Positions 25,333 to 47,315 of a stretch of DNA of 64,000 bases are shown here, piece by piece. A program made the position numbers and the translations under genes. The notes under the pieces were generated by a model. That model searched no databases. It worked only from the letters and a program-made list of their open reading frames with translations, and was not told the DNA's origin. The DNA is from Syntrophobacteraceae bacterium. Lineage in GTDB: Bacteria > Desulfobacterota > Syntrophobacteria > Syntrophobacterales > Syntrophobacteraceae. Position 1 is the first letter of the stretch. Each line of letters starts with the position of its first letter. The DNA lies in the NCBI GenBank assembly GCA_052147195.1, contig JBKQLC010000114.1, forward strand, positions 450 to 64,449. Direction: 5' to 3'.

Positions 25333-26358
25333 TTACAGCCCCTTGATATGCCTGTGAAGCTCGACCGTGCTCTGCAGCCGGACACGGTCGCGGTCTTTTC
25401 GAATCTCTTCGAGTTCCCGCCAGAGGGCAAGCAGGTCAGGATCGTCATACCGCCCGCCTGAGCGCTTGGCTTCGATCATGCTGCGGTATATGAAAATCAT
25501 TCTGCTGACAAGTTCCACTGGGTACTCACGCCCCTGGACTTTGAGTGTATGAAGCCCAAGGTCCATGTACTTCCAAAACTCCTCCCCGGCTATAACGAAC
25601 GCGACATTTGGGTTGCGGCGGATACGCTCGTTAATGAACTCGATCTCTTCAGGCTTCCTCCCCCTCTGGCCGAGCACCTTTCGCCTCTGCTTATCTGTAA
25701 GCAGACACAACCGGAAGCAGCTTCCAGATCTATCAGGCCACCCTTCGAACTCAACGATTTCGTTGCCATCTTCATCCCGGCACCTGCGCTGAATATAGGA
25801 ATCACTGATCAGTTCATGGAACGAGCAGTTCCCTACCCCTCCTATGCAGCGGTTGCCGTGAATCAAAACTTCAGTTGCCACACCGAGGGAGTCAGATGCG
25901 CTTTTGAAGTCCGAGAGTTGTCCAGCGGTCTTGATCTCGGTACTGACCACCACCTGTGTGGCGCCATATCCGCGGTATTTGGCTATCTCATCGCGCCTCT
26001 GGATATTACACCCCACACTCGCGTGAACCACCAGATCGGGGAAATTGTCACGGGCCATCTGCATTACGAACGGAGTCCTTACGATTATGCCCTCGGCCCC
26101 GCAGGAGGCGTATTTCGCGGTTTTTTCCAGGAGCAGCATTGCCTTCTCGCGTGGGACCTCCGCGTTCATGGCGACCCGCACCTTCCCTCCGAACCCATTG
26201 GCGATCCGGACAGCCTCGCAAATGTGTGAGTCTTCCAGCTCCCAGGCACTCTTTCTGCGACTGAAGCCCTTGCACCCGACGTAAACGGCATCAGCGCCAT
26301 TCTCGAAAACGGCTCTTACCATCTCAAGACTTCCGCCGGGCGCCAGTAATTCGTTCAT
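25333..26358 (-). CDS. Peptidase U32 family protein
   Basis: 341 aa. The N-terminus [28 protein letters not shown] and the following TIM-barrel-like layout are typical of U32 (collagenase-like/RlhA/UbiU-type) proteins. Confidence 0.8.
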
Positions 26359-26620: not shown

Positions 26621-26908
26621 TTAATCCTCTATAAGCTTAAAGAACTGGTCAACCGGCAGAGCTTTGTAAACTTCGTATGAAACCGCGCCCCGTTGGAGTG
26701 TATTGACCATACTCTTCACCCTGGCGTCCTCATCCGGGAATTCTGCCAAGATAAGATATTCTCCCCGAGATACGATGTAGTAGGCTGCAATGATTTTGCC
26801 TCCGGATTGCTCGACATTTTTCCTGCCAAGTTCGAAGCGCTCTCGTGAATTCCTGATCTCCCGGTTGCCTTCCGCTGTAAATTTAAGGTAAGAAGCATAG
26901 ACTGGCAT
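26621..26908 (-). CDS. GYD domain-containing protein
   Basis: MPVYASYLKFTAEGNREIRNS...GGKIIAAYYIVSRGEYLILAEFPDEDA matches the GYD family pattern. ATG 26908 is preferred. Confidence 0.75.
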   Translation of the reverse strand: MPVYASYLKFTAEGNREIRNSRERFELGRKNVEQSGGKIIAAYYIVSRGEYLILAEFPDEDARVKSMVNTLQRGAVSYEVYKALPVDQFFKLIED

Positions 26909-27932
26909 AAAAACCTCCGTTTTGAGAGAAAAAGTTGCCAAATGGCGATTAGCGGCCTCAAAGGCCGTCCCGTGAAGTCAGGAGGGAAAAGCACCACGAC
27001 TTCTCACGGACCAGAGCCGAACACCAGGTCATAGAGCAAAAAGAATGCCATGGTACTTCACAACACGGCCAAGCCAAAAGGTAACCTGGCGTGATTTCTA
27101 TACTGCACGATGAGGTATTTTTAACTTGACCTTTTTTCTTTGGCTTGCTAAGGATCATCATAAGCGTTAGCAGAAGCTGCAATCTTTCTGCTGAGAGGCT
27201 ATCACTTTAATAACAATGGATGCGTTTCGGATAGATGATTTCCGAAAAACTCCTTCTTCTCCATGCGATCGATTTTCCTTGGCAGTTGCTCATAATATTG
27301 ATGTAGCCTTCTCCTTTCCATTCCCGTTCTTAAAGGCGCAAATCAAGCGCTGATACCTCATCCCGGCGAATTTTCGAAACCCATTATCTTCACTGTCGAT
27401 TAGAGATTTTTTCGAACGCGTGTCGCCGTGCCTTATTTTGTTCATCAGAATCACGATAATGCCAATGCTGTTTATGCAGTTTTGGGCCTATGGAGAGCAG
27501 CAAAGTCTTTACATGTAAAAAGGATACTTCCATGGAAGGTATATCGGAACATCAAAATTGTTTCCTGATCGACCTTCGAAAACGGCAGGCCTGGTGCAGG
27601 TCTTGCCGGGCGCTGTGCAGGCGGCTCGATTTGGCCGAGTACACCCAGTTCTGGTGCGGCAATCACGGCTGCGATAACAGCGGGGAGGTCAGACTTTGTC
27701 AAGACGGTACATGGAGCATTCACTGTTTCGTTGAAAGCTGGTTTGGAAATCGCTGCAGCAGATTCGCGTCCAGGCTGTTGGTTTCCACGGCCCCGCCACC
27801 CTGCGGTCCAGATCCTTCAGCCTGAGCGGCGAAACAGACAACAAGGTGTTTCCGTCTTTTAGCGCGATGAACCTCAAACATCATTAAACTCCGGCAGTCC
27901 GTCCACTACCGGCATGCGCGCAGGTAAGCCAA

Positions 27933-30626
27933 ATGAGGAAAAAAACTCCCCCCCAGTCAGAACCTCCTTCATTTGAATTGTTATTCCAAAGTTTGAATGA
28001 ACCCATGTTTATCTGCGATTCAAGTCTTCACATACTTCAGGCAAACGAATCTTTTTCCATGCTTTTTAACGATAATGGCGGGCCCATCATTGGAAAATTT
28101 TGCCACGCGCTGCTTGGCGGTGACCACAGCGAGGATTTTGCGATACGCTTCAACGAGGTCTTCCGGACGTCGAAAGTGCAATCATGGGACGTTTACATTC
28201 CAGTGTCCAACGGCGCATGGGGTAAGTTCGAATTCACCGCCTCCCCTTTGCGCAATTGTGACGGGCAGGTTACCAGGGCAGTTGGACATGCCCACGATAT
28301 TTCGAAGCGCATGAGCCTGGAAAAAGAGCTAAAGGCATCCGAAGAAAGGTATAGAAGAATAGTAGAGACCGCGAGGGAGGGCATTTATATCATCGACAGC
28401 GAGGCAAGGATAACTTTCGCCAACCGGCGATTCTCTACGATGCTCGGCTATCACACTGATGAGATACTAGGCAGATTCATTTTCGATTTCATGGAGGAGG
28501 CTTCAGAAGCCTTGGCGCGCCGAAAATTCGAGAGGCGCCGGCTCGGTTTATCTGACACTTATGAATTGAAATTGCTGAGAAAAGGTTCCGCGTGTATCTA
28601 TTGCCTCGTCTCGGCTTCACCTATAATGGAGGACGGAGTTTTTCAGGGCGCCCTGGGCATTTTGACAAACATCACGTGTCTCAAGGAGATCGAGTCTGCA
28701 TTGCGTTCGGCAAAATGCTTTTCCGAGAGGATCATCAACAGCATAACTGACGAACTCATGGTCGTAAATCCATTAACCTACCGCATAGTGCAGGTAAACG
28801 ATCATTTTCTCGCCAGGACGATGTTTCAGAATGCCGAGGAACTCTCAGGCAGGACCTGTTACGAGACTCTGTTTGGCAGGAGTTTTCCATGTCACGAAGA
28901 GGGGATTTTCTGCCCGGTGCGCAAAACTTATGAAACCGGAAAGCCTTACCTGTGTGATACCATACATCCGGAACTGAAGCAGAGCGGAAGAGTCAAGCAG
29001 ATTGCCACATATCCAATCATGGGCGACCTGGGTAAAGTTGACCTCGTGATCCGAACCGAGCGTGACGTTACGGAGAAGAAAAATCTCGAGCAGGCCCTGG
29101 CTGTCCGCTCCGAGGAACTGCTCCGGACGCAGCACAGACTCGAAGAACTGTTCGATCTGTCCCGCGAGGTGGGGACAAAGGCTACCTTGGCGGAGCTTTT
29201 GCAGTTTCTCCTGAACTTTACTCTAAAACTTCTTCCCGATTCGGAGCCGGCATTACTCCTTTTGGACTCCTCTTGCGAACACTTACTGCGCTTCGAGGAT
29301 TGTGAGCCTAAATCCGTTGAGAAACTGCTCCAGATTTTGCAGAAGCTCGAACTATGCACCCTGACCTCCAACCTTGTTCATGAAATCAAAAAATGCAAGA
29401 TCAAGGACCTCATCGGCCCCTCGGACCACTGCCAGGTATTTTCTCTTCTAAAGATCATCGCCAAGTCCGACCTCACCTGGTTGGCCATCCCGCTTTTTGT
29501 GCGCAGACAATGCATCGGCCTGCTCTATTTTGGATCAAAGACCTTCAACAGATATCCGGCTGGGGACATCAGGTTCCTCGAGGCGCTGTGCGAACAAGCT
29601 GCAGGACATCTCAGAAATCTCGTAATGCACGAGGCCGAAGTCAAAACCCTGCGATCCCAGGTCATCCAACGTTCGGGATATGGGGACATTATCGGCCAGA
29701 GCAAGGCCATGCAGGAAATCTATGAACTCATCGACCTCGTTTCCTGCTCCGACGCCACCGTGCTCATAACGGGTGAAAATGGAACAGGCAAAGAGCTGGT
29801 CGCCCATGCCATCCACACCCAGAGTCATCGACGAAAAGGCCCTTTTGTGGTCGCAAACTGCTCTGCTTACTCCCCCACCCTGCTCGAGAGCGAAATATTC
29901 GGCCACGAAAAAGGTGCATTCACAGGCGCGAGCCATCAGAAAAAGGGCCGGATCGAACGCGCTCATGGCGGTACGCTGTTTCTGGACGAAATAGGCGAGA
30001 TAGCACCTTCCGTACAGATATTCCTTCTGCGGTTTCTACAGGATCATTGCTTCGAGCGAGTCGGAGGGGAGAAGGTCATTGCTGCAGATGTCCGGGTACT
30101 TGCGGCAACTAACCGCGAGCTTCAGCACGAGGTCCAGGCAGGCCGATTCCGGGATGATCTTTTTTATCGCCTGAACGTAATCGCAATCCACCTGCCGACT
30201 CTGATGGAGCGCAAGGAGGACATTCCTCTGTTGGCCCATCATTTCCTTGCCAAACACAATCTGAAGGAACACAAAAATATTAAGAACTTCTCAGCAGGCG
30301 CCATGCAGGCTCTCATGAATTATGACTGGCCTGGAAACGTTCGCCAGCTCGAAAATGCTATTAGCCACGCGGTCGTACTGGCTCAGGGGGAACTTATCCG
30401 CAGAAAATACCTGCCTAGATTCCTGTGGGACACAGGAACAAGTAGAACTTTGACCTCACTTTGCGAGAGCGAACGTGGACTTATCCTCGAAGCACTCCAG
30501 AGAGCCAACGGGAACAAGCATGAAGCGGCCAGGTGCCTTAAGATCAGTCGAAGCACTCTATACAGCAAAATGAGGCGATACGAACTCGATGAAGAGTTAA
30601 AGGCGAGGTGTCTGGACTTGCACTAG
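27933..30626 (+). CDS. Sigma-54-dependent transcriptional activator (PAS-PAS-GAF-like sensor, AAA+ sigma-54 interaction domain, Fis-type HTH)
   Basis: 897 aa. Walker A GENGTGKELVAHAIH, GAFTGA motif (EKGAFTGA), Walker B LFLDEIGE, RFRDDLFYRLNV, and the C-terminal HTH AARCLKISRSTLYSKMRRY. Confidence 0.92.
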   Translation: MRKKTPPQSEPPSFELLFQSLNEPMFICDSSLHILQANESFSMLFNDNGGPIIGKFCHALLGGDHSEDFAIRFNEVFRTSKVQSWDVYIPVSNGAWGKFEFTASPLRNCDGQVTRAVGHAHDISKRMSLEKELKASEERYRRIVETAREGIYIIDSEARITFANRRFSTMLGYHTDEILGRFIFDFMEEASEALARRKFERRRLGLSDTYELKLLRKGSACIYCLVSASPIMEDGVFQGALGILTNITCLKEIESALRSAKCFSERIINSITDELMVVNPLTYRIVQVNDHFLARTMFQNAEELSGRTCYETLFGRSFPCHEEGIFCPVRKTYETGKPYLCDTIHPELKQSGRVKQIATYPIMGDLGKVDLVIRTERDVTEKKNLEQALAVRSEELLRTQHRLEELFDLSREVGTKATLAELLQFLLNFTLKLLPDSEPALLLLDSSCEHLLRFEDCEPKSVEKLLQILQKLELCTLTSNLVHEIKKCKIKDLIGPSDHCQVFSLLKIIAKSDLTWLAIPLFVRRQCIGLLYFGSKTFNRYPAGDIRFLEALCEQAAGHLRNLVMHEAEVKTLRSQVIQRSGYGDIIGQSKAMQEIYELIDLVSCSDATVLITGENGTGKELVAHAIHTQSHRRKGPFVVANCSAYSPTLLESEIFGHEKGAFTGASHQKKGRIERAHGGTLFLDEIGEIAPSVQIFLLRFLQDHCFERVGGEKVIAADVRVLAATNRELQHEVQAGRFRDDLFYRLNVIAIHLPTLMERKEDIPLLAHHFLAKHNLKEHKNIKNFSAGAMQALMNYDWPGNVRQLENAISHAVVLAQGELIRRKYLPRFLWDTGTSRTLTSLCESERGLILEALQRANGNKHEAARCLKISRSTLYSKMRRYELDEELKARCLDLH

Positions 30627-30730
30627 GGGGTCGCTATTCATACAGGTGCTCCAAATCCAGATTGGTAGCGCTTTGAGCCTGATTTCACTAGTGGGTGGGG
30701 CGTATTTCATACACTTTCCCGATTCCAGCC
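30626..30730 (+). promoter_or_regulatory. Copy A of a repeated ~100-bp noncoding element (candidate enhancer/UAS)
   Basis: Shares ordered blocks with copy B at 42485-42588: GGGGGTCG, TGAGCCyGATTTCA, GGGrCGTATTTCATACACT (15 nt identical) and GATTCCrGC. It contains the palindromic core GTAT-TTC-ATAC. Confidence 0.5.
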
Positions 30731-31066
30731 TTGTGCGGGATCGGAAAAAAACTTTTGAAAGTTAAAAATAATTCTTTCCAGGCTTTTTCCACTTTAAGAA
30801 GCCCATGGTTTCCCACCTGCTATAAGTAGCTAAATTCACTCAAAACCTTCCGGGCTGTTTACGAAAAAACCTTAACATCCTACGCTCTTTTTCATGATTA
30901 TCTCCCCGTTGCGTCAAAGACTGCGGTGACCGGTTTACTATTCAACTAATCTCTAGTTTTTCGCTCTGACTTTCATCCAACGCGTGGGCGCCATTACCGC
31001 AACGATCGGTTCAGCCCGCCACGGCTTGACCACATCTAACAGCGATCAGACCATTCTGATTCCTCG

Positions 31067-31083
31067 TGGGCATAAATCTTGTA
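31067..31083 (+). promoter_or_regulatory. Candidate sigma-54 (-24/-12) promoter, copy A
   Basis: TGGGCATAAATCTTGTA. GGCAT then TTGT at canonical GG-N10-G spacing. The 16-nt core is repeated at 42740-42755 with 1 mismatch (GGGCACAAATCTTGTA). The -12 element reads TTGT instead of the consensus TTGC. Confidence 0.4.
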
Positions 31084-31858
31084 GTGTTGGTGAGTTCCTA
31101 CAAGCCTAATACCTTTTAGAGATTGGGTTTTTAGAGGTTGGGTCTGCGTCAGGTCGAGCTTCTGGTCGGCAGCAGCAGACCGAGCGTTTCTTGAAACGCC
31201 GGATATATGGATAAATCGGGCCGCATATCGGCGACCTGATGAATATTATAAACTGGTTACGTAAATCTTTGCTGATCCATCCGTCAGCTCTGAAACACCG
31301 GTTCAACAGTGCAATTTTACGATTTCAGCGCAATTCATACTTATCACGCTCCTTTCTCCTCCTGACCGCCCACTCCCTTCATGCGCAGGGTGCCGCCACC
31401 TCCTCGGCGGTGTGTGTTGTTTTCAACCCCCGCAGCGGCCAATCCGTCTGATTACACGGCACGCCAGCAAAGGCCTCTGCTTTAAGGTAACCGTTGTAAG
31501 GTTAACGATAGGATCAAGCGCGAAAATCACCAAAGGATATTTTATCGGTGATCCTTCGTGGTTCAGAGATAATCCTCATTATACCCGGATTGAAGATACG
31601 CCTTACCGGGAATCAATTGAGGATTTCAGATACAACTATTACCGCGAATATAGAATTGAGAGGAGGTGGTCAAGGGACGGCAATATCCCATTATAAGTTC
31701 TGGCTCTTTTTCGGGAGAATGATTGTTGTACGGAGGTCCTTTCTCACCGGGACGAATTACGCGAGTCAGGCCGGTTGCTAAACCATGTGGTGGCACTGAT
31801 GAAACATCATCGCTTTTAAACTCAGAATCAGAGGTCACCACGAACAAGGGAGGTAAAA

Positions 31859-33343
31859 ATGCCGGAAAAGCGAGATATCGAAATAAAGAGCCGGGCCGAT
31901 ACCATAGGCCTGATGGATCTGGATGTAAGACCCTACCCGGTTACTCCGCCGCCCTCTTACGAGGCGGTAAAGCCGATATATGAGAGAAGAAAGGCGCTGG
32001 AGTTCTGCAATTGGGCTGAGGAGAACCTAAGATTTGAAAAAAGATACGAGAAAGATGAGGCCCTGACAGGATACAGGATTCTGGACATCGGTCTGTGGAG
32101 ACTCGGCCACAAATTTTGCGCCTCTCTGTATGGCGAAGCCGGCGCGGAGGTCGTTTCCATCGAACCACCCAAAGGCGATCCGTTGAGGAAGCTGACACCT
32201 TTCGGCCGCGAAGAGTACCTTCTCAAAAACAAGGACAGCGGCGAAAAATGCGGCATGGAGTTCGTCAACGAGACGGTGAACACCCACTGTGTAACCCTCG
32301 ATGTGGAGACAAAGGAAGGGCAGGAAATTTTCAGGAAAATGGCAATGAACGTCGACGTCCTGATCGACGGGATGCCCCCCGGTTACATGGATAATCTTGG
32401 GATCGGGTATCGTCAGCTTAAGCAACTCAACCCCAGGATGGTCTACGTGTGGGTCGGCATGCTCGGCCAGTGGGGCCCCTGGAAGGACAAGCAATCCAAG
32501 TTCGGCCAGTGGATGCTCGAGCCTTTCGCGAGCGCCGCAAATTCCTGGATCCACAATACCGGCTTGGCCCAGGACCTTCTCCCGCGCGGCAAGGGCGGCG
32601 ATCCCACCCGCGCAGGCATTTGGCTTGCTGACTATGTTGCCGGGGCCCAGGCTTTCCTCAACTCCATTGCTGCCCTGTATTGGAGAGACGAATTGGGCGG
32701 TACCGGGCAGATGATCGAGGTCACGGGCGCCGAAGCTTTGATGGATATTCTCGACTTCGATATTACCTGGTATGGGTTTAATAAAAGTATAAAGGCCCGC
32801 ACCGGCGGCTGGGATGCGTGCCTCAACCAGTATGCCTGGAACCCCTGTAAAGACGGCTACATGATGATCGGCGGCCAGACCGACAAGCTCTGGTATAATA
32901 TAGGATTTTGCCTTGAGCGTGAGGAACCACAGTTCGGCCGGCTGATCCACGAAGATCCCCTCCTCAAGGAAATGGCGGCCAGAAACGCCTTGCACGCTCT
33001 TATAAAGACCTACACCCTGACCACCCGGTGGCTCAGAGACACTAACCGGGTGGAAGCAGAAACCAAGCTCCTCGAGTACCAGGTTGCGGCCGGGCCGGTT
33101 CTCTACATCGACGAGGTCTGCGAGTTCCCCCACTTCAAGTATCGGCCATGGGTCTACGTACATGAGACCGATTACGGCCCGCTGCTGATCGCTTCGAGCC
33201 CGGCGTCCTACCAGGTTCGCGCTCCTTTCAGGTGCAAGTGGATGGGCAGAGATCTCGGCTATGACAACTACGAGATCTATTTGAAATGGACTGGAATGGG
33301 GCAGACAGCAGTGAATCAAATGAAACAGAAGGGGGTGATATAA
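31859..33343 (+). CDS. Family III CoA-transferase (CaiB/BaiF/BbsF-like), long form, subunit 1
   Basis: 494 aa. [41 protein letters not shown] is the N-terminal family-III signature. LADYVAG supplies an Asp at the expected catalytic position. SD GGGAGG upstream. Confidence 0.8.
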
Positions 33344-34758
33344 TGGCGCAAGACCCGAGAGTAACACGCATGGAAGACCTGCCAGGCCCCAAGAGCAAAG
33401 GTGAAATGGACGAGTTTAAGATGCCCTACGAGGAATACTGCAGGAAGCTCTTCGATGTTGGCAATGAACACACCAAGCCCAAACCTCTTAACGGGATTCG
33501 GTGGCTGAGCTGCACCATGTATATCTTCACGCCGCACGCTGTGGCCAACCTGGCCGAGCTGGGGGCCGAGGTCATCAAGCTTGAGATACCGAGGATGGGT
33601 GAGCCCATGCGGCACACATCTCCCTTTAACGAGGTCTATCTCTATCCGTTCCACGATATGCGCCCCATGACCGGCACCGGCCTTGGCTATACTAACGCTA
33701 ACCCCAACAAGTATTTTGTGACAATGGATTATCACGTCCCCGAGATGAGGGAGGTGTTCTACAGCCTGGTGAAAAAATCCGACGGGCTCACCGAGCTCTA
33801 CCGGCCAGGCACCCTGGACAAATGGAAAATGAGCTACCGGTACCTGAGTGAAATCAATCCCAGGTTCATCTACGTTTGGGGCGGCGGTTTCGGCTACGGT
33901 CCCAAAGTATTTGGCGGTTCCTACGACATCCTGGGCCAGGCGCACGCCGGACTCGCCTCGATAACCGGCATGCACGAGTACATGGGAGGGCATTGCTCCA
34001 AGTGCACCAACTGGGTCATAGACTGGCAATCGGGCAACCTTATAAGCTGCGCGATCATGGCGGCCATTCATCATCGCAGAAAGACCGGGCTGGGCACCAT
34101 GATAGAATTCTCCCAAGTGCAGGTCCCCACAAGGATGCTCGGTCATACCACGACGATGTATGGCAAGTTCGGCATTGTCCGGCAGCGCTGGGGCAACTGG
34201 GACACTCAACTTGGGGTACACGGCATCATTTTGTGCGGCAAGTCCGATTTTCCGGATGCCGAAAATCCGCAGGACAAGTTCGATTCAAGATATGTACTGG
34301 TCAGCGCCTTCCAGGATCAGGACTTCAAGGAGCTGTGCGCCATCACAGGCCTGAAGGAACTCTATGAAAAGTACAAGGCTCACAAAGACCGAGTCGAAGG
34401 CGAGGCTCAGGTGGAGATTTATACCGCTTTGGAAAGATGGGCCGCAGACAAGAGCAGGTCTCAGGTAGCAAAGATTTTGACCGACGGGGGTCTTTTGGCC
34501 GAACCTGTTCGGAATGACCGCGAGGTTTATGAGAGTCCGCACTACCGTGAGAGAGGCACGGTCCGATGGATGGACGATCCTCTATTCGGTGATTTGGTGG
34601 TCCATGGCGGCTACAGCACCGGGTTGATGGAAAAGAGCCCCAGGAGGATTAACTGGCACTGGCGTCCGCTGGGTGCGGACAACAAGAAGATCTACCGTGA
34701 CATGCTCGGTGTTCCGCTGACCAAGATCGAAGAATGGTATAAAAAGGCCTACATCTAA
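33343..34758 (+). CDS. Family III CoA-transferase, long form, subunit 2 (paralog)
   Basis: 471 aa from ATG 33343 (TAATG overlap with subunit 1, SD AAGGGGGTGA). [40 protein letters not shown]. Asp in VIDWQSG. Confidence 0.8.
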
Positions 34759-34770
34759 GAGGAGGCTCCC

Positions 34771-35256
34771 GTGTGTGATATTATTTGGTGCAAGAAAGAA
34801 GTGAACGGAAAACCATGTGACACGATCAACTACCTGGACCCCTACTGCTTCTGGAACTGGGAAGGAAAGATCAACTGCGCCGAATGCGGCACGGTCTATT
34901 ACATTCACATGATTCAGGGCTTTATGTACATGGGACCTGAAGAAAGACCCGGCGAGAAGCCGGACACCTCACCCCTTTATGCGGACAAGCCTTACGACGG
35001 TTATACCAACTACAGACCAGGTGTGGAAGGCCGCACCAGACCTTTCCAGTGCACGCCCAGAACAAAATTGCTGGGAGTTGCCGACATGGTGAAATTCAGC
35101 ATCCGGGGCCGTCCCGTGCGTGGATGGCGTCCGCAGCCACCCTCCGCAGGTTTGGCCGGAAGCCTTGGCTTCAACTGGGATATTCAGAAACTGTCGCCCG
35201 AGGTCTGGGAGGAATATCAGAAGAAGCTGGCTGCCGGCGAAGTCAAAGACTGGTAG
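34771..35256 (+). CDS. Cys-rich protein of unknown family (161 aa), operon member
   Basis: GTG start 5 nt after AAGAGGAGG. The N-terminus holds six Cys (CDIIWC...C...C...CAEC). The remainder is Pro/Gly/Arg-rich. No family recognised. Confidence 0.6.
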   Translation: MCDIIWCKKEVNGKPCDTINYLDPYCFWNWEGKINCAECGTVYYIHMIQGFMYMGPEERPGEKPDTSPLYADKPYDGYTNYRPGVEGRTRPFQCTPRTKLLGVADMVKFSIRGRPVRGWRPQPPSAGLAGSLGFNWDIQKLSPEVWEEYQKKLAAGEVKDW

Positions 35257-35275
35257 ATTGAGAAAGGAGTGTTGC

Positions 35276-35512
35276 ATGTCACAAGAGTTGACACCTGAAG
35301 ATTTCCTGGACACCGTCCTGGTCCCGGAAAAAAAGAGTGACCATATATGCTGGCAGTGCAAATACTTGAAGCCGGTCCTCAAAGGCTCCAAGTTCCCGCC
35401 CGCGGACATTATCGGCTGGTGCAAGAAAATCCACTGGCCTCATTACTGGTGCGTAGCAGACTTCAACGTGGTGAAGAAGTGCTATGCCTATGACGCCAGG
35501 AAGAAGGCCTAG
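35276..35512 (+). CDS. Small Cys-rich protein of unknown family (78 aa), operon member
   Basis: ATG after AAAGGAG. ICWQCKYL...GWCKKIHWPHYWCVADFNVVKKCYAY (five Cys, Trp-rich). The track ORF 35120 start is probably spurious. Confidence 0.55.
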   Translation: MSQELTPEDFLDTVLVPEKKSDHICWQCKYLKPVLKGSKFPPADIIGWCKKIHWPHYWCVADFNVVKKCYAYDARKKA

Positions 35513-35513
35513 C

Positions 35514-35786
35514 ATGGAAGAAAACGTCCGTGAAGAACTCGATGTCCTCAAGGGCATGCTGAACAACTGGAAAACGGGTTTTTTGGGTTGGGCCTCCCCC
35601 GAAGGGGATAACGATCATGTGCTCCTTGAATTCAGCGAGGAAATCCAGATGCACGTCTATCCCTATGTAAAGAGATTGTTTGAGACGGATCAACTCAGCG
35701 AAGTCGAGGTCAAAGAGTTCATGCATTATTGCTTAAGCCAGGTTGAAGATCTTCGCTTCCAGTTGAGCAAAGCGCAAACCGACTAA
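35514..35786 (+). CDS. Small acidic helical protein of unknown family (90 aa), operon member
   Basis: ATG 35514 lies 2 nt after the preceding stop, with SD GGAAGAAGG. MEENVREELDVLKGMLNNWKTGFLGW... Confidence 0.5.
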   Translation: MEENVREELDVLKGMLNNWKTGFLGWASPEGDNDHVLLEFSEEIQMHVYPYVKRLFETDQLSEVEVKEFMHYCLSQVEDLRFQLSKAQTD

Positions 35787-35805
35787 AGCTAGAAGGAGGT
35801 TTAGT

Positions 35806-36228
35806 ATGCCAGAGAAATGCCGTGTGGTGGTATGCGGCTTTGACCCTATGCTCGTAAAAGCATATGTAGCCGCCAACGCGAGAGCCTGCTGGTGGCACGT
35901 ATCCGACGAGCTATACAATGAGTTCAAAATGCAGCCGAAAATGAAGGTCCAAGGGAAGCTTCTTAAAGTCTATTCGGGTAAAACCGGTCAAGAGGCAGAG
36001 GCTCCTGACGAACCATTTGAATGGGAATGCTCCAACGAGTCCGGCCTTGCGGTCTTGCTCCCGGCTGACGTTATCAAGAAGCACAAGCTCACGGAATTTC
36101 ATTTCCTCGAGTTGATGATCGACAAAATTGACGGCAAAGACGTTTATCCTGGCCAGGAAAAGATAAGTAAGAAGTGGTGGCCGCAGGAGAAGCTGAAATT
36201 GGGCTATGCACTCGATTACATCGGATAG
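35806..36228 (+). CDS. Protein of unknown family (140 aa), operon member
   Basis: Strong SD GAAGGAGG 7 nt upstream. MPEKCRVVVCGFDPMLVKAYVAANARACWWHVSDE... No family recognised. Confidence 0.6.
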   Translation: MPEKCRVVVCGFDPMLVKAYVAANARACWWHVSDELYNEFKMQPKMKVQGKLLKVYSGKTGQEAEAPDEPFEWECSNESGLAVLLPADVIKKHKLTEFHFLELMIDKIDGKDVYPGQEKISKKWWPQEKLKLGYALDYIG

Positions 36229-36301: not shown

Positions 36302-36337
36302 TCCCCTTTCCATTGCCAGGAGAGGGGGTTTTATTAT
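36302..36337 (+). terminator. Weak intrinsic terminator after the CoA-transferase operon, within a cluster of four hairpins (36258-36386)
   Basis: CCCCT-15 nt loop-AGGGG followed by GTTTTATTAT. Flanking stems: TCCCCCG/CGGGGGA (36258-36281), GTTGGG/CCCAAC (36281-36293) and TGAGCCCCA/TGGGGCTCA (36350-36386). Confidence 0.4.
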
Positions 36338-36433
36338 GATCTAACGCTATGAGCCCCATAGTGGGATGTGGCGACTTTGGGGCTCACGTTGTATTTGACA
36401 AAGAAAAGTACGAGTGTTCATTGAGGGGAAGAA

Positions 36434-37696
36434 ATGGCAAATAAAGCGATAGACGAGAGGCAGGACCCACACCCGGAAATAAAGCCGCTCATAGAGGATG
36501 AAAACCTGCCGGAGCACGAACCGGCACACCCTGGCTGGCTATCGATTGGTGAGATTTTGAAAGTATCGCATCCTGTCTTTGCAAAGAGCAGTTTTCTTAT
36601 CGGATATCATCATTCCAGCAATGTGTATTTGCTCGCAGGCGATTACCTCACCCTGGTGGACCCAGGCAATGATTACACTATTTTTTTTGATATTGAAAAA
36701 CTTGGGTATGATATTTTGGATATAAAGAAGGTCGTGTTCACGCACGGGCATCGCGACCACTGCATGGGCATATTCGAGATGTTGAGATTTCCCACCGTAA
36801 TTGAAAACAAGCAAGTCGAGATCATTATGCATGCAGAAGGTCCACAGGAGTTAAAAAGGATTACCACACAGGCCGGGTTTCCCCCAACAGAATTAGCAGG
36901 TGGAGAAACCCTTGAGCTGAGCGGCTTTGAATGGGAAGTAATCCATACTCCCGGCCACACAATCGATAGTATATGCCTGTATCACGAACCGACCGGGACG
37001 CTTATTTCCGGCGACTGCGTACTGCCCGATACCATGGCGGACGTAGACAAGACTGCCGGAGGCAGGCTGGACCTTTACTTGTACGGGCTCGGTCAGTTGA
37101 TGAAAAAAAGCATCGTTCATGTTCTTCCCGGCCATGGTGTGCCGGTGGCGTTCACCGGAAAGCGTACTGTAGAAGAAACATATGAAGGCTTAATAATGAA
37201 AATCTTAGAAGCGGCCCCCGAAGACAAAATGACCTGGATGGAAGGGGCGAAGCGGCTGGCTGACAAGGGGCTTTTGGCAGAGGTCGCATTTTGCTGTGAT
37301 AAAGAACTGACCCTCAGGCCGCATAATCTGGAAGCAATGCAGTTGAAGGCCCTTGCGTTGAACGATATGGGCCGGTGCGAGGAGGCCATCGAGGTTTTGG
37401 ACTTGATTTTGGCAAGGCAGGGCCACAATGCCTATGCTTTGACAGCCAAGGGTCAGGCATTGCTGGGTCTGACCAGATACGCTGACAGTCTGCCATATTT
37501 TGATAAAGCCATGGCGAAGGACCCCCAGATCAGGGAAGCTCAGGTCTTTAAAGGTATGGCATTGTATTTTATGGGCAGGTCTGAGGAGGCTATGGCAATC
37601 GAGGCCTTCAAATCCGAGTTCGAAGCAAGATGCAGGAGCCAATTTGACAAAGTGCGGCAAGCACCCGAATCAGATGCTCACAGCCATGACGTATAG
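36434..37696 (+). CDS. MBL-fold metallo-hydrolase fused to C-terminal TPR repeats (paralog 1)
   Basis: 420 aa. THGHRDHCMG (HxHxDH), TPGHTIDS, SGD, LPGHG. The C-terminal ~170 aa are TPR-like (LKALALNDMGRCEEAIEVLDLIL..., TAKGQALLGLTRYADSLPYFDKAM...). Confidence 0.85.
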   Translation: MANKAIDERQDPHPEIKPLIEDENLPEHEPAHPGWLSIGEILKVSHPVFAKSSFLIGYHHSSNVYLLAGDYLTLVDPGNDYTIFFDIEKLGYDILDIKKVVFTHGHRDHCMGIFEMLRFPTVIENKQVEIIMHAEGPQELKRITTQAGFPPTELAGGETLELSGFEWEVIHTPGHTIDSICLYHEPTGTLISGDCVLPDTMADVDKTAGGRLDLYLYGLGQLMKKSIVHVLPGHGVPVAFTGKRTVEETYEGLIMKILEAAPEDKMTWMEGAKRLADKGLLAEVAFCCDKELTLRPHNLEAMQLKALALNDMGRCEEAIEVLDLILARQGHNAYALTAKGQALLGLTRYADSLPYFDKAMAKDPQIREAQVFKGMALYFMGRSEEAMAIEAFKSEFEARCRSQFDKVRQAPESDAHSHDV

Positions 37697-37769
37697 GCGG
37701 CTGGACGGTTATATGTTCTGACTTGACCATTGTCCGATGGTTATGCACTCCCTCGGCAGGTATAGAAAA

Positions 37770-37961
37770 ATGGACGAGAAATTCTATCATGCTGCAAAAG
37801 CCCTGATAACTTACATTGATAAAGAGTATGTTTTCGATAAGTCCGCTGATATGGGTTGTGGCGGATTTGATACTTATCAATCAGAGACTTTTTACGATCT
37901 AATCGCAAATGCCAAAAAAGCCCTTAGCGATTTTGAGAATTCAATGAAAGAACTCGGATGA
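37770..37961 (+). CDS. Hypothetical small protein (63-74 aa)
   Basis: ORF 37737/37770-37961. The stop overlaps the next ORF start (ATGA). Predicted helical, with no strong SD. Lies in an AT-rich segment. Confidence 0.3.
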   Translation: MDEKFYHAAKALITYIDKEYVFDKSADMGCGGFDTYQSETFYDLIANAKKALSDFENSMKELG

Positions 37962-38221
37962 GTTGTTACCCTGAAAGGTGTCGCGGTAAAATGGCAATCG
38001 AGGAAATCAGTTACGAAGAGTACATGACAAAGCTTGATGAAATCGAGAAGCGCTACTTGTCCGATGAGAAAGGTTTTCCCGAGGGTGCGCGCGAGAAGGG
38101 GTTGGAGATTTGTAAGAAGTTCCGGCGAGAAGTGAAGGCGTTGGGTCCTGAAAATTGTTTATATTACATCGACACGGTGTATGGGTTGCCGATGCACAAA
38201 CCCAAGCAACGCGAAGGATGA
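37958..38221 (+). CDS. Hypothetical small protein (76-87 aa)
   Basis: The ORF is coupled by ATGA to the previous one. Lys/Glu-rich helical sequence (ISYEEYMTKLDEIEKRYLSDEKGFPEGAREKGLEICKKFRREVKAL). Confidence 0.35.
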   Translation: MSCYPERCRGKMAIEEISYEEYMTKLDEIEKRYLSDEKGFPEGAREKGLEICKKFRREVKALGPENCLYYIDTVYGLPMHKPKQREG

Positions 38222-38531: not shown

Positions 38532-39275
38532 TCATATGTCTGCTTGCAGCAGTATATCACTTCCCACAATCGCCATTAGAAAGCCAATGGATTCTGCACG
38601 CCTGGAAAACCTTGTCCAGTTTTCTTCACTTAAGCCGTGCTCTACTGTGGTCAACAGCAATCCTCTTTCAAGACTGTTGCTTTCCTTAAGCAAGAGAAAT
38701 TGCCTGTGATTGCTGAATGCAAACAATACCGAGCCGTTAGTCAAAAGATAATTGTATGATCCAGGGTATTCCTCAATAAGTTGCCTGGAGGTGTCAGCCA
38801 CGGCCCTGAAGAGGCCGAAGATATCACTGCTTCTTTCTTGGCGAGCCGCCATACCGTCCATAAGATACTCAAAGATTCTTGCCGAATCACTAACTACATC
38901 ATCAAATCGAACCTTTTGACTTCGATAAGACTCTATGGCAGGGGACTTCCCATTGTGAGCGAAAATCCAGTTTTGACCTTTGAATTGAAGGACAAAAGGA
39001 TGAGCATGACATTCGTCTATAGGACCGCTGGTTCGTAAACGTACATGTGCGATAATAAACTTGCTTGCAACGACTCGAGCAAGCCTCTGAAAACCATCAT
39101 GGAATCTTCCTTCTTGATAGGCATGGGTGGCTGATTTCTCTACATAAGCTCGATTCTTCCTGAAAAATCCTATACCCCAGCCGTCCATATTCCTAGCCGC
39201 TTTGGCTGCAAAAATCGGCAAGGCCTTGGGCGCCGAGTAATTTGTCGCAGCAGACAGGGCGAATAAGTCGCACAT
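38532..39275 (-). CDS. Class II (Ntn, Cys-1) glutamine amidotransferase-like protein, YafJ-type, paralog 1
   Basis: 247 aa. MCDLFALSA...NMDGWGIGFF...HVRLRTSG...HPF...FAHNG is the Ntn GATase-II pattern, with Cys2 as the nucleophile after Met removal. Confidence 0.8.
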   Translation of the reverse strand: MCDLFALSAATNYSAPKALPIFAAKAARNMDGWGIGFFRKNRAYVEKSATHAYQEGRFHDGFQRLARVVASKFIIAHVRLRTSGPIDECHAHPFVLQFKGQNWIFAHNGKSPAIESYRSQKVRFDDVVSDSARIFEYLMDGMAARQERSSDIFGLFRAVADTSRQLIEEYPGSYNYLLTNGSVLFAFSNHRQFLLLKESNSLERGLLLTTVEHGLSEENWTRFSRRAESIGFLMAIVGSDILLQADI

Positions 39276-39391
39276 AACGGGGTCTTACCTGTCTTCGTAT
39301 ACAGGGTTGAATTCAATCGATCGCCTTTATCGGGCGGTCCTACTCCCGGCACGATTAGAGCCTGCCCTGCCTGCCGGTCGCAGTGTGAATT

Positions 39392-40150
39392 TTAGAGAAA
39401 AGCCTCTTGCGTCACATTGCCCAGATACAATACGTCTGGTCCCGCAACCACCAGAAGCTTTCCCAGGGTGTTACTTTCCGGCTCGATGGCAATCCATTCT
39501 TTGTCACTCAGTCCTTCCCCGATAGTGGTGAGGACAAGGCTATTTCCATTCCTTGCCGATTCCTTGAGGAGCATCAAAGTCCGAAAATTAGAAAAGGCAA
39601 AAAAGACTGACTCATTGGCTAGAACAAACGAATAATGGCCAGGATAGTCTGAAAGCAAGTTCCTAATGCTTTTTACCAGCGATCTGCCAAGACTCTCGTA
39701 AGGAGTGTACAGCAGATAAGAGATCAGTTGATCCCTTAAATATTCAAATACTCTGGCAGGATAAACATCCACATCTATCCTGGGTTCGTTTGCTGTTTGA
39801 TAATTGTCGATTTCTTTTATCAATCCGATATGCACAAATAGCCATACGTGGTTGAGAAACGATAAAGAAAATGGGTGATTCTGAGCAGTATGACGTCCAC
39901 CGCTCAACGGACAGCTAATGTGCGAGACTATGATTCTGCTGTCTACAACCCTTGCCAGCCTCTGGAAGCTCTCGTGGACTTGCTCGCTGTCATAGACCCG
40001 CTCTGCAGATTTCTCTACCAGAGCCTGGTTGTCACGATAAAATCCAATACCCCAACCGTTCATGTTTCGCTTGCCCTTTTCCGCAAATATCGGCAAGTAC
40101 TGTTGGGCCGTATAATTAACTCCCGCCGAGAGCGCAAAAATATCGCACAT
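39392..40150 (-). CDS. Class II (Ntn, Cys-1) glutamine amidotransferase-like protein, paralog 2
   Basis: 252 aa. MCDIFALSA...NMNGWGIGFY...HISCPLSG...HPF. The usual HNG is replaced by FVHIG, so this copy is divergent. Confidence 0.75.
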   Translation of the reverse strand: MCDIFALSAGVNYTAQQYLPIFAEKGKRNMNGWGIGFYRDNQALVEKSAERVYDSEQVHESFQRLARVVDSRIIVSHISCPLSGGRHTAQNHPFSLSFLNHVWLFVHIGLIKEIDNYQTANEPRIDVDVYPARVFEYLRDQLISYLLYTPYESLGRSLVKSIRNLLSDYPGHYSFVLANESVFFAFSNFRTLMLLKESARNGNSLVLTTIGEGLSDKEWIAIEPESNTLGKLLVVAGPDVLYLGNVTQEAFL

Positions 40151-40223
40151 CTTCTCTAATTCCCCTGTACAAAGTTAGCTCTTGCAATTCAGCCCGGACT
40201 GAGTTGCAACGGGAACATCCCGG

Positions 40224-41207
40224 TCACCCCAGCTTCAAACCCAACGGTTCTTCTCCCATCTTTGATATAGTAGACTTGTGTGCAATCCAACCGTTAATGC
40301 GATTCATATGACCAAATGCAAGATATATCTTATATATCGTTTTCAACCATTTATTTGCATTTGCATAGTAGTCGATTTTCGGCACTCGTCCATCGCTCAG
40401 TTCGACTAAAAACTGCGTGAAGATAATCCACTGCATTGCTTCATCTATTTGCTGGAGAACAGCAGAGTGATATCGGAACTCAATGGTGGATCGATACCAA
40501 TACGAATGCAGATTGAGCCCATGGTAACGAGTCAAGTCGTACCTGTCAGATGCGCTGCGAGTGGAATCATGCCCATTGTTCTGGCAATACCATAACTCCT
40601 TGATTTTACAACCGTTCTTCTCACATGTATCGTCACAATCACCCAATTTACTGAATAAATCGACATCGAGATCCATGGGACGGCAAGTAGCTTTATCGAT
40701 CCTGCCCCCAGCGATCAGAAGATAAATATAGTCCTCCATTGCATAGACAATTCTTATGAGCTCTTTCAGGTGTTTGCACTCATAAAGTTTAGCATCTACG
40801 CCGTGATGAACGTGAAATCCACATGATTCGTCTATTTGCGCTCCACGGATTTCGCCGAGCAACTGGAAGAAGCGATACGATTCCATTAGTCCCTCAAAGC
40901 CGCGAAGTATCGGGCTTATAAGTTCCACGCCACCTCGGTGAACTATGGAAGCATCTTCTTCAAAGTGCCAGGAATGCCTGTCCGTGCCTAGATTTAGTCC
41001 GTAGTCATCTAGTAATTGAAGGAAGCTTCTGCCATCTCGGGCTTTCGAATGGATGTTGTAAGGTTTGATTATGCCGTTGTCGGGCGGTAAGATATAGTAG
41101 TCCAGGCCATAGAACTCGATTTCCACTCCGAGAGGCCTATCCGTGAAATAGCACAACATCGGGTACTTCTTCTTAAGTTTTGCGACCGACTCTTGATGCT
41201 CTTGCAT
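40224..41207 (-). CDS. Amidoligase_2-family (glutamine-synthetase-fold) putative amidoligase
   Basis: 327 aa. GVEIEFYG, WHFEEDASI...GGVELISP, CGFHVHHG, STIEFRYH are the block motifs I associate with the PF12224-type amidoligase. SD GAGGAAGAG upstream. Confidence 0.75.
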   Translation of the reverse strand: MQEHQESVAKLKKKYPMLCYFTDRPLGVEIEFYGLDYYILPPDNGIIKPYNIHSKARDGRSFLQLLDDYGLNLGTDRHSWHFEEDASIVHRGGVELISPILRGFEGLMESYRFFQLLGEIRGAQIDESCGFHVHHGVDAKLYECKHLKELIRIVYAMEDYIYLLIAGGRIDKATCRPMDLDVDLFSKLGDCDDTCEKNGCKIKELWYCQNNGHDSTRSASDRYDLTRYHGLNLHSYWYRSTIEFRYHSAVLQQIDEAMQWIIFTQFLVELSDGRVPKIDYYANANKWLKTIYKIYLAFGHMNRINGWIAHKSTISKMGEEPLGLKLG

Positions 41208-42588: not shown

Positions 42589-42738
42589 ACTTCAAATTGA
42601 GCAGGACAGCGAAACATTCACTTCGCAATTGAACTTTCGGCGATTTTTCTCTCCTGACGCCTTTAACCATCGTTTCATTATGAGTGGTTCAATCCTTCAT
42701 AATGTCAAGCATACTGCGATATTCGTTGTCATTGCCGT

Positions 42739-42755
42739 CGGGCACAAATCTTGTA
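42739..42755 (+). promoter_or_regulatory. Candidate sigma-54 (-24/-12) promoter, copy B
   Basis: CGGGCACAAATCTTGTA. GGCAC is perfect at -24 and TTGT sits at the -12 position. It is nearly identical to 31067-31083 and lies ~530 nt upstream of MBL-TPR paralog 2. Confidence 0.4.
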
Positions 42756-43286
42756 TTACCAATAGAGGCCCCTCCTAGCTTCATCCATTCAGAAGTGTGG
42801 TTTTTAAAAAGTTTGGACGTGCAAGGAGTGGCGGTCACATCTGCGTGTAGCGGACTTGGTGGACGGGCTGATATGCAGGACCGGCCGGCTGATTGGCGGC
42901 TTGGTCATCAAGAAACTATGGGGATCAGTTCCATAAATCTCGGCGGCTCCATTCTTCAGTCTTCAAACTCGAGCTCAGCAGAGCGATTTTTCGATGCCAG
43001 CGCTGTTCAGTATCCAATCGTGCTTCTTTCGCATTCTGGCTGCCTTTCTCTATCCATGGCCAACTTACAAGCCTCTCAGAAGGACTCGTAAGGGTGTAGT
43101 CCACGAAAGAGATGAAATTCCTTTACTCGGCAACCCTCATATGACCCAGTAATTCATCAGCCGGGTCCTTCTTGCCACTTGGGGGGTTTGACAGGGACGA
43201 CCCAGGGGGTGCGGTAACGTTTCACCTTAACCTCACCCCTCTGCAAACCGGCAGTTCACATTTTACATTACCGGAAGGTGACACAC

Positions 43287-44665: not shown

Positions 44666-45124
44666 ATGGGGAATCGGAGTCCCTTAATGGTCACTCAAGA
44701 TGTGCGATTTTCCGTCATGATTTTGAACGAGGAAGTTCGCAGCCTTATCTTGAGTCTGCTGAAGAAGTACGAGCAGTTTAACGTTGGCATTGCTGAACTC
44801 AAAGAGCTATTGGATTCGACGAAAAAAAAGGAAGACTTGATAATCCTGGTTGACAGTGAAGCTGTGCTCGCATATGGCGCCGCCGTGATATCGAAGCTCA
44901 AAATGTCCTGCCCGGAATGCAGGCTGATTCTGCTTTGCAGCCGGGTCCACCGCAGCATGGTAAAGCATGTAATGGAACTCGGCGCCTATGGTTGTATAAT
45001 CGAGCCATACCCGGAATGGGAGTTTTCAACCATGGTCAGGTCCATTCTGAACGGCCAGAAGATTGATAAAAAGATAACGGCATCGAAAGCTAAGCGGCAG
45101 GGACGAAAACCTCAAGGGAACTGA
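44666..45124 (+). CDS. Stand-alone CheY-like receiver-domain protein (possibly atypical)
   Basis: 152 aa. beta-alpha pattern VMILNEE...DLIILVDSE...ILLCS...GAYGCIIEPY resembles a REC domain. The acidic pocket is not clearly canonical. Confidence 0.5.
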   Translation: MGNRSPLMVTQDVRFSVMILNEEVRSLILSLLKKYEQFNVGIAELKELLDSTKKKEDLIILVDSEAVLAYGAAVISKLKMSCPECRLILLCSRVHRSMVKHVMELGAYGCIIEPYPEWEFSTMVRSILNGQKIDKKITASKAKRQGRKPQGN

Positions 45125-47100: not shown

Positions 47101-47315
47101 ACTTGCTTCTCCCTTCGCTCAGTGAATCGCATAAACACCATAACCAATGTACAAATAAAATCGAAAGAAGGGGCAATAACCGTGCCAACGCCTGTACCAA
47201 CCTGCTCCGTGCAACGCACCCAAGCCGGTGACGTATAGTATATCTGGCACGATTCGTGTAAAGTAATCGTGAGGCCCTCAAACTGCTGCCGCAAGCTATT
47301 TCACGGGAGCAACTG

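Follow-up and report, generated by a model that had tools for sequence, protein, structure and literature searches.

Within a 64,000-nt stretch of DNA from a Syntrophobacteraceae bacterium (contig JBKQLC010000114.1, positions 450 to 64,449 of the forward strand; the whole stretch is called the window below), six closely packed genes on the plus strand encode two paralogous family-III coenzyme A (CoA)-transferases, here named A and B, followed by four small orphan proteins, S1 to S4. The genes, and the element that closes the unit, are as follows.

31859-33343, plus strand: A, family-III CoA-transferase paralog, 494 aa, catalytic Asp in WLADYVAG.
33343-34758, plus strand: B, family-III CoA-transferase paralog, 471 aa, catalytic Asp in NWVIDWQSG; start codon overlapping the A stop codon in TAATG.
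34771-35256, plus strand: S1, orphan protein, 161 aa, with an N-terminal zinc-ribbon-like Cys4 site (C7, C16, C36, C39), an NYLDPYxFWNW motif and a poorly modelled C-terminal half.
35276-35512, plus strand: S2, orphan protein, 78 aa, with a rubredoxin-like Cys4 site and invariant H23, C25, C28, C49, H53 and C69.
35514-35786, plus strand: S3, acidic orphan protein, 90 aa, isoelectric point (pI) 4.5, the least conserved of the six and missing in some variants.
35806-36228, plus strand: S4, orphan protein, 140 aa, whose confident AlphaFold2 (AF2) model resembles a pseudo-dimeric swapped-hairpin (AbrB/PhS018-type) beta-barrel.
36302-36338, plus strand: terminator-like hairpin and T-run closing the six-gene unit, overlapped by a sigma-70-like promoter at 36313-36340.

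The six open reading frames (ORFs), their coordinates and gaps, the TAATG overlap and the Shine-Dalgarno sites are all present as the original prediction, made from the letters of the window, had described them. After the overlap at the A/B junction the genes are separated by 12, 19, 1 and 19 nt, and each start is preceded at 5-10 nt by a purine-rich Shine-Dalgarno sequence (GGGAGG, AAGGGGGTGA, GAGGAGG, AAAGGAG, GGAAGAAGG and GAAGGAGG, in gene order). On sister contigs, genes called independently have the same six products, of 494, 471, 161, 78, 90 and 140 aa. All six genes are under purifying selection. The median ratio of nonsynonymous to synonymous substitution rates (dN/dS) is 0.09 for A, 0.10 for B, 0.06 for S1, 0.10 for S2, 0.32 for S3 and 0.14 for S4, and 0.11 for the metallo-beta-lactamase (MBL)-fold hydrolase with C-terminal tetratricopeptide repeats (MBL-TPR) encoded downstream; these values are rough, having been computed against 4-12 diverged loci with dS near saturation.

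Both large proteins match PF02515 (CoA_transf_3, CaiB/BaiF), A with E 7e-59 over model positions 1-349 of 366 (residues 69-452) and B with E 9e-68 over model positions 1-364 of 366 (residues 49-445), in agreement with their first assignment to family III. The limits of the match also locate the extra length that had been remarked on in both: it consists of N- and C-terminal extensions and an insertion of about 20-30 residues, and the N-terminal extensions (68 aa in A, 48 aa in B) hold residues conserved across orthologs. The Asp that had been picked out as catalytic is kept in each protein, in LADYVAG (A) and VIDWQSG (B). These motifs align with one another, the Asp of B aligns with the D-x-x-x-G Asp of human SUGCT (PDB 9br7, mtDlatG), and the Asp of both occurs in at least 97% of about 50 orthologs. 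Scored against the NCBIfam equivalogs for formyl-CoA, mesaconate, glutarate, oxalate and carnitine transferases and mesaconyl-CoA isomerase, A and B reach 50-128 bits, with cut-offs of 413-750; the best equivalog scores are 103 bits for A and 128 bits for B. Among solved structures, A and B come closest to BbsEF, SUGCT and formyl-CoA transferases (E 1e-17 to 2e-25). Judged by these comparisons of sequence, A and B are family-III CoA-transferases outside all named subfamilies. Each is 52-76% identical to its own ortholog across phyla and domains, yet the two are only 27% identical to each other.

BbsEF resembles the A/B pair in being made of two adjacent paralogous family-III subunits and in coming from anaerobic Desulfobacterota-type organisms, and it provides the best PDB sequence match of A (9fn0_A, E 1e-17) as well as a match of B (9fn0_B, E 3e-20). 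The similarity is distant, however. 9fn0_A has no Asp at the position aligned with that of A, whereas here both paralogs keep it, and the labelled neighbourhoods contain no acyl-CoA dehydrogenase, hydratase or thiolase family, that is, no bbs beta-oxidation genes. To our knowledge, BbsEF has no small subunits.

S1 to S4 have no match in Pfam, NCBIfam or PADLOC and no significant profile match among PDB sequences, as the original prediction had anticipated, and the conclusion that they belong to no described family is supported. That prediction had called the small proteins mostly Cys-rich and possibly metal- or FeS-binding. The Cys clusters exist as described. One Cys4 site is invariant in S1 and another in S2; S3 and S4 are without a conserved Cys site. 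In S1 the invariant C7, C16, C36 and C39 form CxxC-type knuckles, the first pair carrying an insertion in the window's clade, and Zn_ribbon_5 hits a distant S1 relative below threshold (E 0.003). The matches of S2 are likewise weak: PknG_rubred at E 0.087 and the rubredoxin-like site of 1zvf at E 0.84. Both Cys4 sites appear from their sequences to be of zinc-ribbon or rubredoxin type and most likely hold structural Zn; Zn or a single Fe is likelier than an Fe-S cluster. In the AF2 model of S1, residues 1-90 are confident and residues 95-136 poor. We read this low-confidence segment of about 40 residues as chain that may become ordered only on a partner. The S1 model has no fold match in the PDB, and weak SCP2-like fold matches (E above 2) were dismissed as noise.

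Several features of S1 and S2 would suit a more active role. Besides its Cys residues S1 keeps the motifs NYLDPYxFWNW, TRP and PQPP invariant, which look more than structural, and S2 adds two invariant His to its Cys4 site. Both proteins are conserved like the transferases (dN/dS 0.06 and 0.10; 48-69% and 38-59% identity, respectively, between bacterial and archaeal-labelled sequences), and the core operon contains no other obvious acyl-modifying enzyme. A and B might then be a scaffold and CoA-loading module, with S1 and S2, perhaps joined by S3 and S4, as a metal-dependent catalytic unit acting on the CoA ester in the manner of FldABC. In FldABC, the phenyllactate dehydratase of Clostridium sporogenes, the family-III transferase FldA is in stable complex with the dehydratase FldBC, which acts on the CoA ester that FldA makes. 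The partners of FldA, however, are HgdAB-type [4Fe-4S] subunits and an ATPase activator, to which S1-S4 are unrelated, and no HgdA/HgdB or BcrAD/BadFG-type family occurs among the neighbouring genes here. The CxxC...CxxC pattern is that of a ribbon or rubredoxin and not a typical Fe-S motif, zinc ribbon and rubredoxin being the only family hints, and the S1 model resembles no known enzyme fold. We consider this arrangement unlikely.

Further genes lie 3' of the block:

36434-37696, plus strand: MBL-TPR, MBL-fold hydrolase with C-terminal TPR, 420 aa, metal motif THGHRDH, TPGH, GD, LPGH intact.
37770-37961, plus strand: S5, orphan protein, 63 aa, 3' of the MBL-TPR gene, dN/dS 0.14.
37991-38221, plus strand: S6, orphan protein, 76 aa, 3' of the MBL-TPR gene, dN/dS 0.05.
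43278-44561, plus strand: second MBL-TPR paralog, 427 aa, 43% identical to the first.
44666-45124, plus strand: single-domain CheY-like receiver, 152 aa, whose homologs directly follow S4 in variants without the MBL gene.

A profile scan with one genome per species yielded 249 loci, and the best 80 of these were fetched for gene-order counts. The order A-B-S1-S2-S3-S4 was found in 249 species-level genomes, mostly Desulfobacterota. The original prediction had proposed looking for conservation of the block as a unit in other genomes, and the order does recur widely: it is kept in all of the 80 fetched loci whose contigs extend far enough, apart from the absence of S3 in some variants. Among the best 80 loci tblastn located A in 73, B in 74, S1 in 80, S2 in 78, S3 in 71 and S4 in 73; every miss of A, B, S2 and S4 falls at a contig end, and S3 is additionally missing in five variant loci whose contigs span its position. 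Most loci come from metagenome-assembled genomes (MAGs) labelled Syntrophobacteraceae, Desulfobacterales or Desulfobacca, one such MAG being about 97% identical to the window, and one cultured isolate, Desulfoferrobacter suflitae DRH4 (L032), has the full set. For S1 alone the databases contain 123 relatives, 48-89% identical to it, and all that carry a name are called "hypothetical protein"; one S1 cluster at 90% identity holds about 1,000 member sequences. Some genomes carry up to three diverged copies of the system.

Orthologs are also found on contigs labelled Archaeoglobus, Thermoplasmata, Methanocellales, Terriglobales and Aquificota. Between the window and the Archaeoglobus-, Thermoplasmata- and Methanocellales-labelled contigs, identity is 52-59% for A, 54-68% for B, 48-69% for S1, 38-59% for S2, 44-51% for S4 and 38-39% for MBL-TPR. 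S3 is 30-34% identical on the Archaeoglobus- and Thermoplasmata-labelled contigs and was not found on the Methanocellales-labelled one. Core proteins of the Aquificota-labelled contig are 62-70% identical to those of the window, so that over all four of these labels A orthologs are 52-62% and B orthologs 54-70% identical. The gene order of the distant loci is instructive. Archaeoglobus- and Methanocellales-labelled loci keep A-B-S1-S2 together and have S3/S4 and MBL-TPR on the other strand, the Thermoplasmata-labelled locus has an A/B pair divergent from S1-S2-S3-S4-MBL, and some bacterial variants are without S3 or the MBL gene, a CheY-like receiver gene then following S4. S1 and S2 directly follow B in every testable locus among the 80, S2 always coming after S1 where the contig reaches that far, and they do so too in the Archaeoglobus- and Methanocellales-labelled loci where S3, S4 and MBL sit elsewhere. 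Because split and variant loci keep A, B, S1 and S2 and rearrange or lose S3, S4 and MBL, the former four are the stable core; S3, S4, MBL-TPR, S5 and S6 are a lineage-specific add-on module. These data support the view that the six genes are one conserved functional unit. Its wide conservation marks the block as a real system, which we propose has spread horizontally in anaerobes. None of the four outcomes that the original prediction had named as refuting it was seen: the small ORFs fall into no described family, are present at syntenic loci and evolve under purifying selection, and A and B belong to no described subfamily.

Within the add-on module, the first MBL-TPR matches PF00753 at E 2e-19, and its THGHRDH, TPGH, GD and LPGH motifs are conserved in 47 sequences. 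Its gene follows S4 in 53 of the 80 loci, including 27 of the 29 long ones. In archaeal-labelled loci these two genes remain neighbours even if A-B-S1-S2 are encoded on the opposite strand. The nearest NCBIfam model is GloB (43 bits, cut-off 201), and the PDB sequence matches include LACTB2 and YcbL. MBL-TPR has the HxHxDH motif and the His/Asp/His ligands of GloB and LACTB2, which are glyoxalase-II-type MBL thioester hydrolases; unlike GloB, it has a C-terminal TPR and pairs with S4, a protein with no counterpart in known GloB. The AF2 model of S4 has a pLDDT of 90, and Foldseek matched it to 2glw (PhS018) with probability 0.97, E 0.14 and TM scores of 0.44/0.62, and to 2d9r with probability 0.80; both are swapped-hairpin barrels. 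S4 has no match in Pfam, SpoVT_AbrB and MazE included, or among PDB sequences, and a pI of 6.3 speaks against its binding DNA. Searched by tblastn, the longer ORFs enclosing S5 and S6 (37737-37961 and 37958-38221) gave matches in 44 and 39 of the 80 loci; neither protein matches Pfam, NCBIfam or PADLOC. The PADLOC anti-phage defence models matched none of the nine proteins of the system that were scanned.

A second, related family of loci extends the pattern. An exhaustive search with the S1 profile over 1.84 billion representatives returned only 63 related clusters (at 50% identity), some of which are 110-140-aa relatives at E 1e-12 to 1e-19. These sister-family relatives have the gene of a B-like transferase directly before them and that of a short Cys protein resembling S2 behind them, and S1 itself is only about 35% identical. 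A metagenome scan with the sister-family profile found 365 loci, 13 of them at least 18 kb long. In these 13, A and B are always present (13/13), as is an AMP ligase (13/13); a 4HBT thioesterase occurs in 10/13, and a U32 gene lies within 10 kb in 12/13. MBL-TPR occurs in none of the 13, and other orphan proteins stand in place of S3 and S4. The sister-family ligase shares an operon with the core and is 46-48% identical to the ligase of the window. An orphan protein of about 125 aa starting (K)(V/L)EFYYSS, with no Pfam match, was also noted (L094, 12148-12543; L097, 1913-2284; sister-family cluster c3). In the Aquificota-labelled contig it follows the cluster, and in the sister family it is part of the operon; no homolog was seen in the window.

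The recurrent partners in the window are these:

45454-47100, minus strand: AMP-forming CoA ligase, 548 aa, closest solved relatives anthranilate- and benzoate-CoA ligases.
47316-47750, plus strand: YbgC/4HBT-type acyl-CoA thioesterase, 144 aa, found again in 16 of the 80 window-family loci.
25333-26358, minus strand: U32-family protein, 341 aa, PF01136 at E 3e-28, Cys pattern CX6C...CX3C.
26621-26908, minus strand: GYD-domain protein, 95 aa, PF08734 at E 3e-12, first gene of a GYD-U32 unit and kept with U32 in 9-11 related loci.

The CoA ligase, the thioesterase and the MBL hydrolases named in the original prediction are thus all real, and the system proves larger than the six genes considered there: it takes in MBL-TPR, two more small proteins, the AMP ligase, the thioesterase and U32. 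The window ligase is 40% identical to ligases beside the Archaeoglobus- and Thermoplasmata-labelled clusters. In Desulfobacterales-labelled loci the ligase gene is divergent from A, and in several loci transporters (MFS, TRAP and Liv-type ABC) adjoin it. The window U32 protein is 38% identical to the one beside the Archaeoglobus-labelled cluster, and U32 and ligase also flank the Thermoplasmata-labelled cluster. Its best NCBIfam models are TrhP (91 bits, cut-off 534) and UbiU (70 bits, cut-off 440). Characterised U32 proteins are Fe-S-dependent, O2-independent hydroxylases (PMC11574389). Those covered in that review act on ubiquinone precursors and RNA bases, and none of them on a CoA ester (PMC11574389). 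The window protein is like UbiU/UbiV, TrhP and RlhA in its PF01136 domain and its CX6C and CX3C pairs, and unlike them in the spacing of these pairs, which in the characterised proteins is CX6CX15CX3C (PMC11574389).

Literature searches found no description of the block; the nearest arrangements that they turned up are two benzene-degrader clusters sharing only the theme of a ligase with two transferases. The uncharacterised "Magic" cluster of the benzene degrader ORM2a has a novel AMP-forming CoA ligase and two class-III CoA-transferase genes predicted to form a complex (PMC13101534). The BzS1_26180-26210 cluster likewise combines a novel AMP ligase with two class-III transferases in a strictly anaerobic member of the Desulfobacterota (PMC13416013). 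Both clusters are uncharacterised and stem from strict anaerobes of the Desulfobacterota, and in both the two transferases are predicted to associate. By their descriptions both differ from the present system: MaoC dehydratases are part of both, the "Magic" cluster also has a GlcDEF-like flavoprotein/Fe-S trio, and zinc-ribbon proteins, MBL-TPR and U32 are not reported from either.

The regulatory features found around these genes are listed next.

27933-30626, plus strand: sigma-54 enhancer-binding activator, 897 aa, PAS/AAA+/HTH, from Pfam labels and NCBIfam matches.
27035-27050, minus strand: sigma-54-type promoter-like site TGGCATTCTTTTTGCT, one mismatch, 127 nt before the GYD start.
47172-47187, minus strand: sigma-54-type promoter-like site TGGCACGGTTATTGCC, one mismatch, 72 nt before the ligase start.
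31068-31083, plus strand: conserved 16-mer GGGCATAAATCTTGTA, -24/-12-like with GT in place of the usual GC at -12, 790 nt upstream of A.
42740-42755, plus strand: second 16-mer copy GGGCACAAATCTTGTA, heading a non-coding stretch of about 400 nt homologous to the leader of A, about 540 nt before the second MBL-TPR.
31084-31858, plus strand: long non-coding leader, with a hairpin inside and its last 260 nt strongly conserved.

The original prediction had described the operon as apparently under sigma-54 control. An adjacent activator is there, and it lies upstream of A in 18-21 of the 80 loci; the 1.2 kb before A (30627-31858), however, has no canonical -24/-12 site with at most 3 mismatches and GG/GC intact. 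Across the window and 33 loci, no canonical sigma-54 promoter was found upstream of A except in the Desulfobacca-type loci L082 and L084, with sites at -188 and -191 relative to A. The 64-kb window has three one-mismatch sigma-54 sites, two of which stand before genes of the system. Because these two precede the ligase gene and the GYD-U32 unit, the partner genes, judged from the sites, are likely under sigma-54 control, and the adjacent activator may be what controls them; for the six-gene operon itself such control is only a possibility.

Upstream of A the 16-mer at 31068-31083 is a candidate promoter, on sequence grounds, for the 790-nt leader. It is exact in 11 related loci and always upstream of A or a receiver gene. 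The invariant 16-mer of the duplicated element reads GGGCA(T/C)AAATCTTGTA, and the roughly 400 nt after both copies agree in 74% of alignment columns, with indels that do not come in multiples of three. The duplicated element is non-coding because these indels are non-triplet, and ORF 42684-43091, which had been considered as an S4 paralog, was rejected as probably spurious, lying in a non-coding stretch homologous to the leader before A. Within the leader a terminator-like hairpin with T-run at 31390-31413 may act as an attenuator or mark where a small RNA ends; the stretch that includes its T-run is conserved in three of four aligned loci. The last 260 nt (31600-31858) are strongly conserved in Syntrophobacteraceae-labelled loci, and RNAalifold folds this part into a stem GTGGTGGC/GTCACCAC supported by a few UA-to-CG compensations, and pairs a UCCC stretch with the Shine-Dalgarno GGGA. 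On this modelled structure, the proximal leader could be a cis-regulatory RNA that sequesters the Shine-Dalgarno sequence. RNAalifold gave no consensus structure for the distal leader, and Rfam returned no family for the window at gathering threshold or for the leader at E up to 1. The leader is clade-specific, archaeal-labelled loci having unrelated upstream regions.

A leader of such unusual length and conservation is a possible target of RNA-binding proteins, zinc ribbons often bind nucleic acids, and the best fold matches of S4 are swapped-hairpin barrels of the AbrB/MazE/PhS018 class. The small proteins could on these grounds be regulators, chaperones or assembly factors of an ordinary heteromeric transferase, S4 being an AbrB-like DNA binder and S1 and S2 zinc-finger nucleic-acid binders. 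We hold this to be quite improbable: S4 is not basic (pI 6.3); in split loci it goes with MBL-TPR and not with the promoter region; the leader is confined to one clade, whereas S1 and S2 follow B in all lineages; and translational coupling with 1:1 gene order suggests stoichiometric partners.

Among the other neighbours, an Amidoligase_2 gene and two GATase_4 (EgtC-like) genes on the minus strand (38532-41207) converge on the cluster. Such a set stands beside it in 17 of 80 loci, including that of D. suflitae DRH4 (L032), and in the Aquificota-labelled L094, where the amidoligase is 39% identical. Neither the Archaeoglobus-, Thermoplasmata- and Methanocellales-labelled loci nor any of the 80 sister-family loci (0/80) have it. 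The recurrence of Amidoligase_2 with one or two GATase_4 genes in the window, these 17 loci and the Aquificota-labelled contig, together with the lack of catabolic downstream genes nearby, would fit a biosynthetic or detoxifying system that makes or remodels a CoA-activated small molecule, such as an amide-linked metabolite. Its absence from the archaeal-labelled and sister loci speaks against this, as do the PAS/sigma-54 activators and the transporters beside the ligase, which fit inducible uptake and use of an external acid, and the up to three diverged copies per genome, as seen in catabolic paralog families. We regard a biosynthetic system as very improbable.

Other genes near the cluster were set aside. 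For DUF169, aldehyde dehydrogenase, MFS and other genes beside the Archaeoglobus- and Thermoplasmata-labelled clusters, the window has no equivalent. In two mutually syntenic loci, L093 (unlabelled) and L095 (Terriglobales-labelled), which count as one independent observation, the cluster adjoins FeoAB and PadR; further genes of metal homeostasis there encode Zip (L093) and, in L095, proteins with Fe-dependent repressor (DtxR-type) domains. About ten loci (L056, L058, L061, L068, L087, L092 and others) have a block of four to five genes 2-8 kb downstream of the cluster. By sequence reading it comprises JAB/MPN-like, ClpX-like AAA ATPase and ThiF/E1-like proteins and two unknowns; it has a ubiquitin-like or defence look and was judged a probably unrelated neighbour. 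A SelD (selenide, water dikinase) gene at 48143-49114, beyond the thioesterase, is there in 1 of 80 loci and probably unrelated.

The data presented above have led us to propose that the six genes are the core of an undescribed CoA-thioester system, in which A, B, S1 and S2 would form a four-subunit CoA-transferase served by ligase-primed CoA recycling; we think the chances for and against this proposal are evenly balanced. In such a system A and B would be a heteromeric transferase with S1 and S2 as obligate small partners, each contributing one Cys4 site. The ligase would spend ATP on the first acyl-CoA of a carboxylic acid, the acyl moiety would be transformed while CoA-bound, with U32 as the candidate catalyst, and A/B/S1/S2 would then move CoA from the product to fresh substrate, so that no ATP is consumed per cycle. 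The thioesterases (4HBT, MBL) would release the product or clear dead-end CoA esters, and S3, S4 and MBL-TPR with S5 and S6 would be an accessory module, in which adaptor proteins probably hold an ester or thioester hydrolase. The sequences show that the genes are real, that A and B belong to family III, that the Asp and Cys residues are conserved and that gene order and partners recur; the physical complex, its metal, the order of the reactions and the substrate class we infer.

This recycling logic is that of carnitine metabolism, in which the AMP ligase CaiC primes the pathway and the family-III transferase CaiB recycles CoA between product and substrate. Here an AMP ligase is the most constant partner. 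CaiB, however, forms a homodimer that has no accessory subunits, the CaiB model gives A and B only 50 and 61 bits (cut-off 413), and no CaiA/CaiD-type enzymes occur here. In a narrower version of the proposal, A/B/S1/S2 with ligase, thioesterase and U32 would make up an anaerobic pathway for O2-free functionalising of a CoA-activated, probably aromatic, acid, with a transferase that needs two metal-binding subunits. We rate this version as unlikely; if true, it would be the first catabolic CoA-ester role for U32 and the first family-III transferase with dedicated small subunits.

Several observations weigh against the proposed system. In the window's own family, the 29 long loci have the ligase within 10 kb in 9 cases, the thioesterase in 11 and U32 in only 6. 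No beta-oxidation, ring-reduction or other downstream pathway family occurs in any Pfam-labelled neighbourhood, which is odd for a catabolic island, and there is no substrate clue beyond the distant relatives of the ligase. The Cys4 site could hold Fe instead of Zn, the fold class to which the S4 model points is best known from DNA-binding regulators, and the recurrence of Amidoligase_2/GATase_4 beside the cluster in distant lineages hints at chemistry that the model leaves unexplained.

The CoA-transferase fold itself is well known; what is new is that a family-III transferase pair has orphan partners of its own and belongs to a larger conserved system. Four or more orphan families are tied to a familiar enzyme fold and share 40-70% identity across bacteria and archaea, which points to an undescribed piece of anaerobic metabolism, and the system occurs in sulfate reducers and syntrophs of peat, sediment and the subsurface. 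The cultured isolate D. suflitae DRH4, with its complete cluster, offers an experimental handle. With the system solved, several orphan families would gain a function, and a new mode of CoA-transferase construction could come to light; should the link to U32 hold, so could a new route of O2-independent oxidation in carbon cycling.

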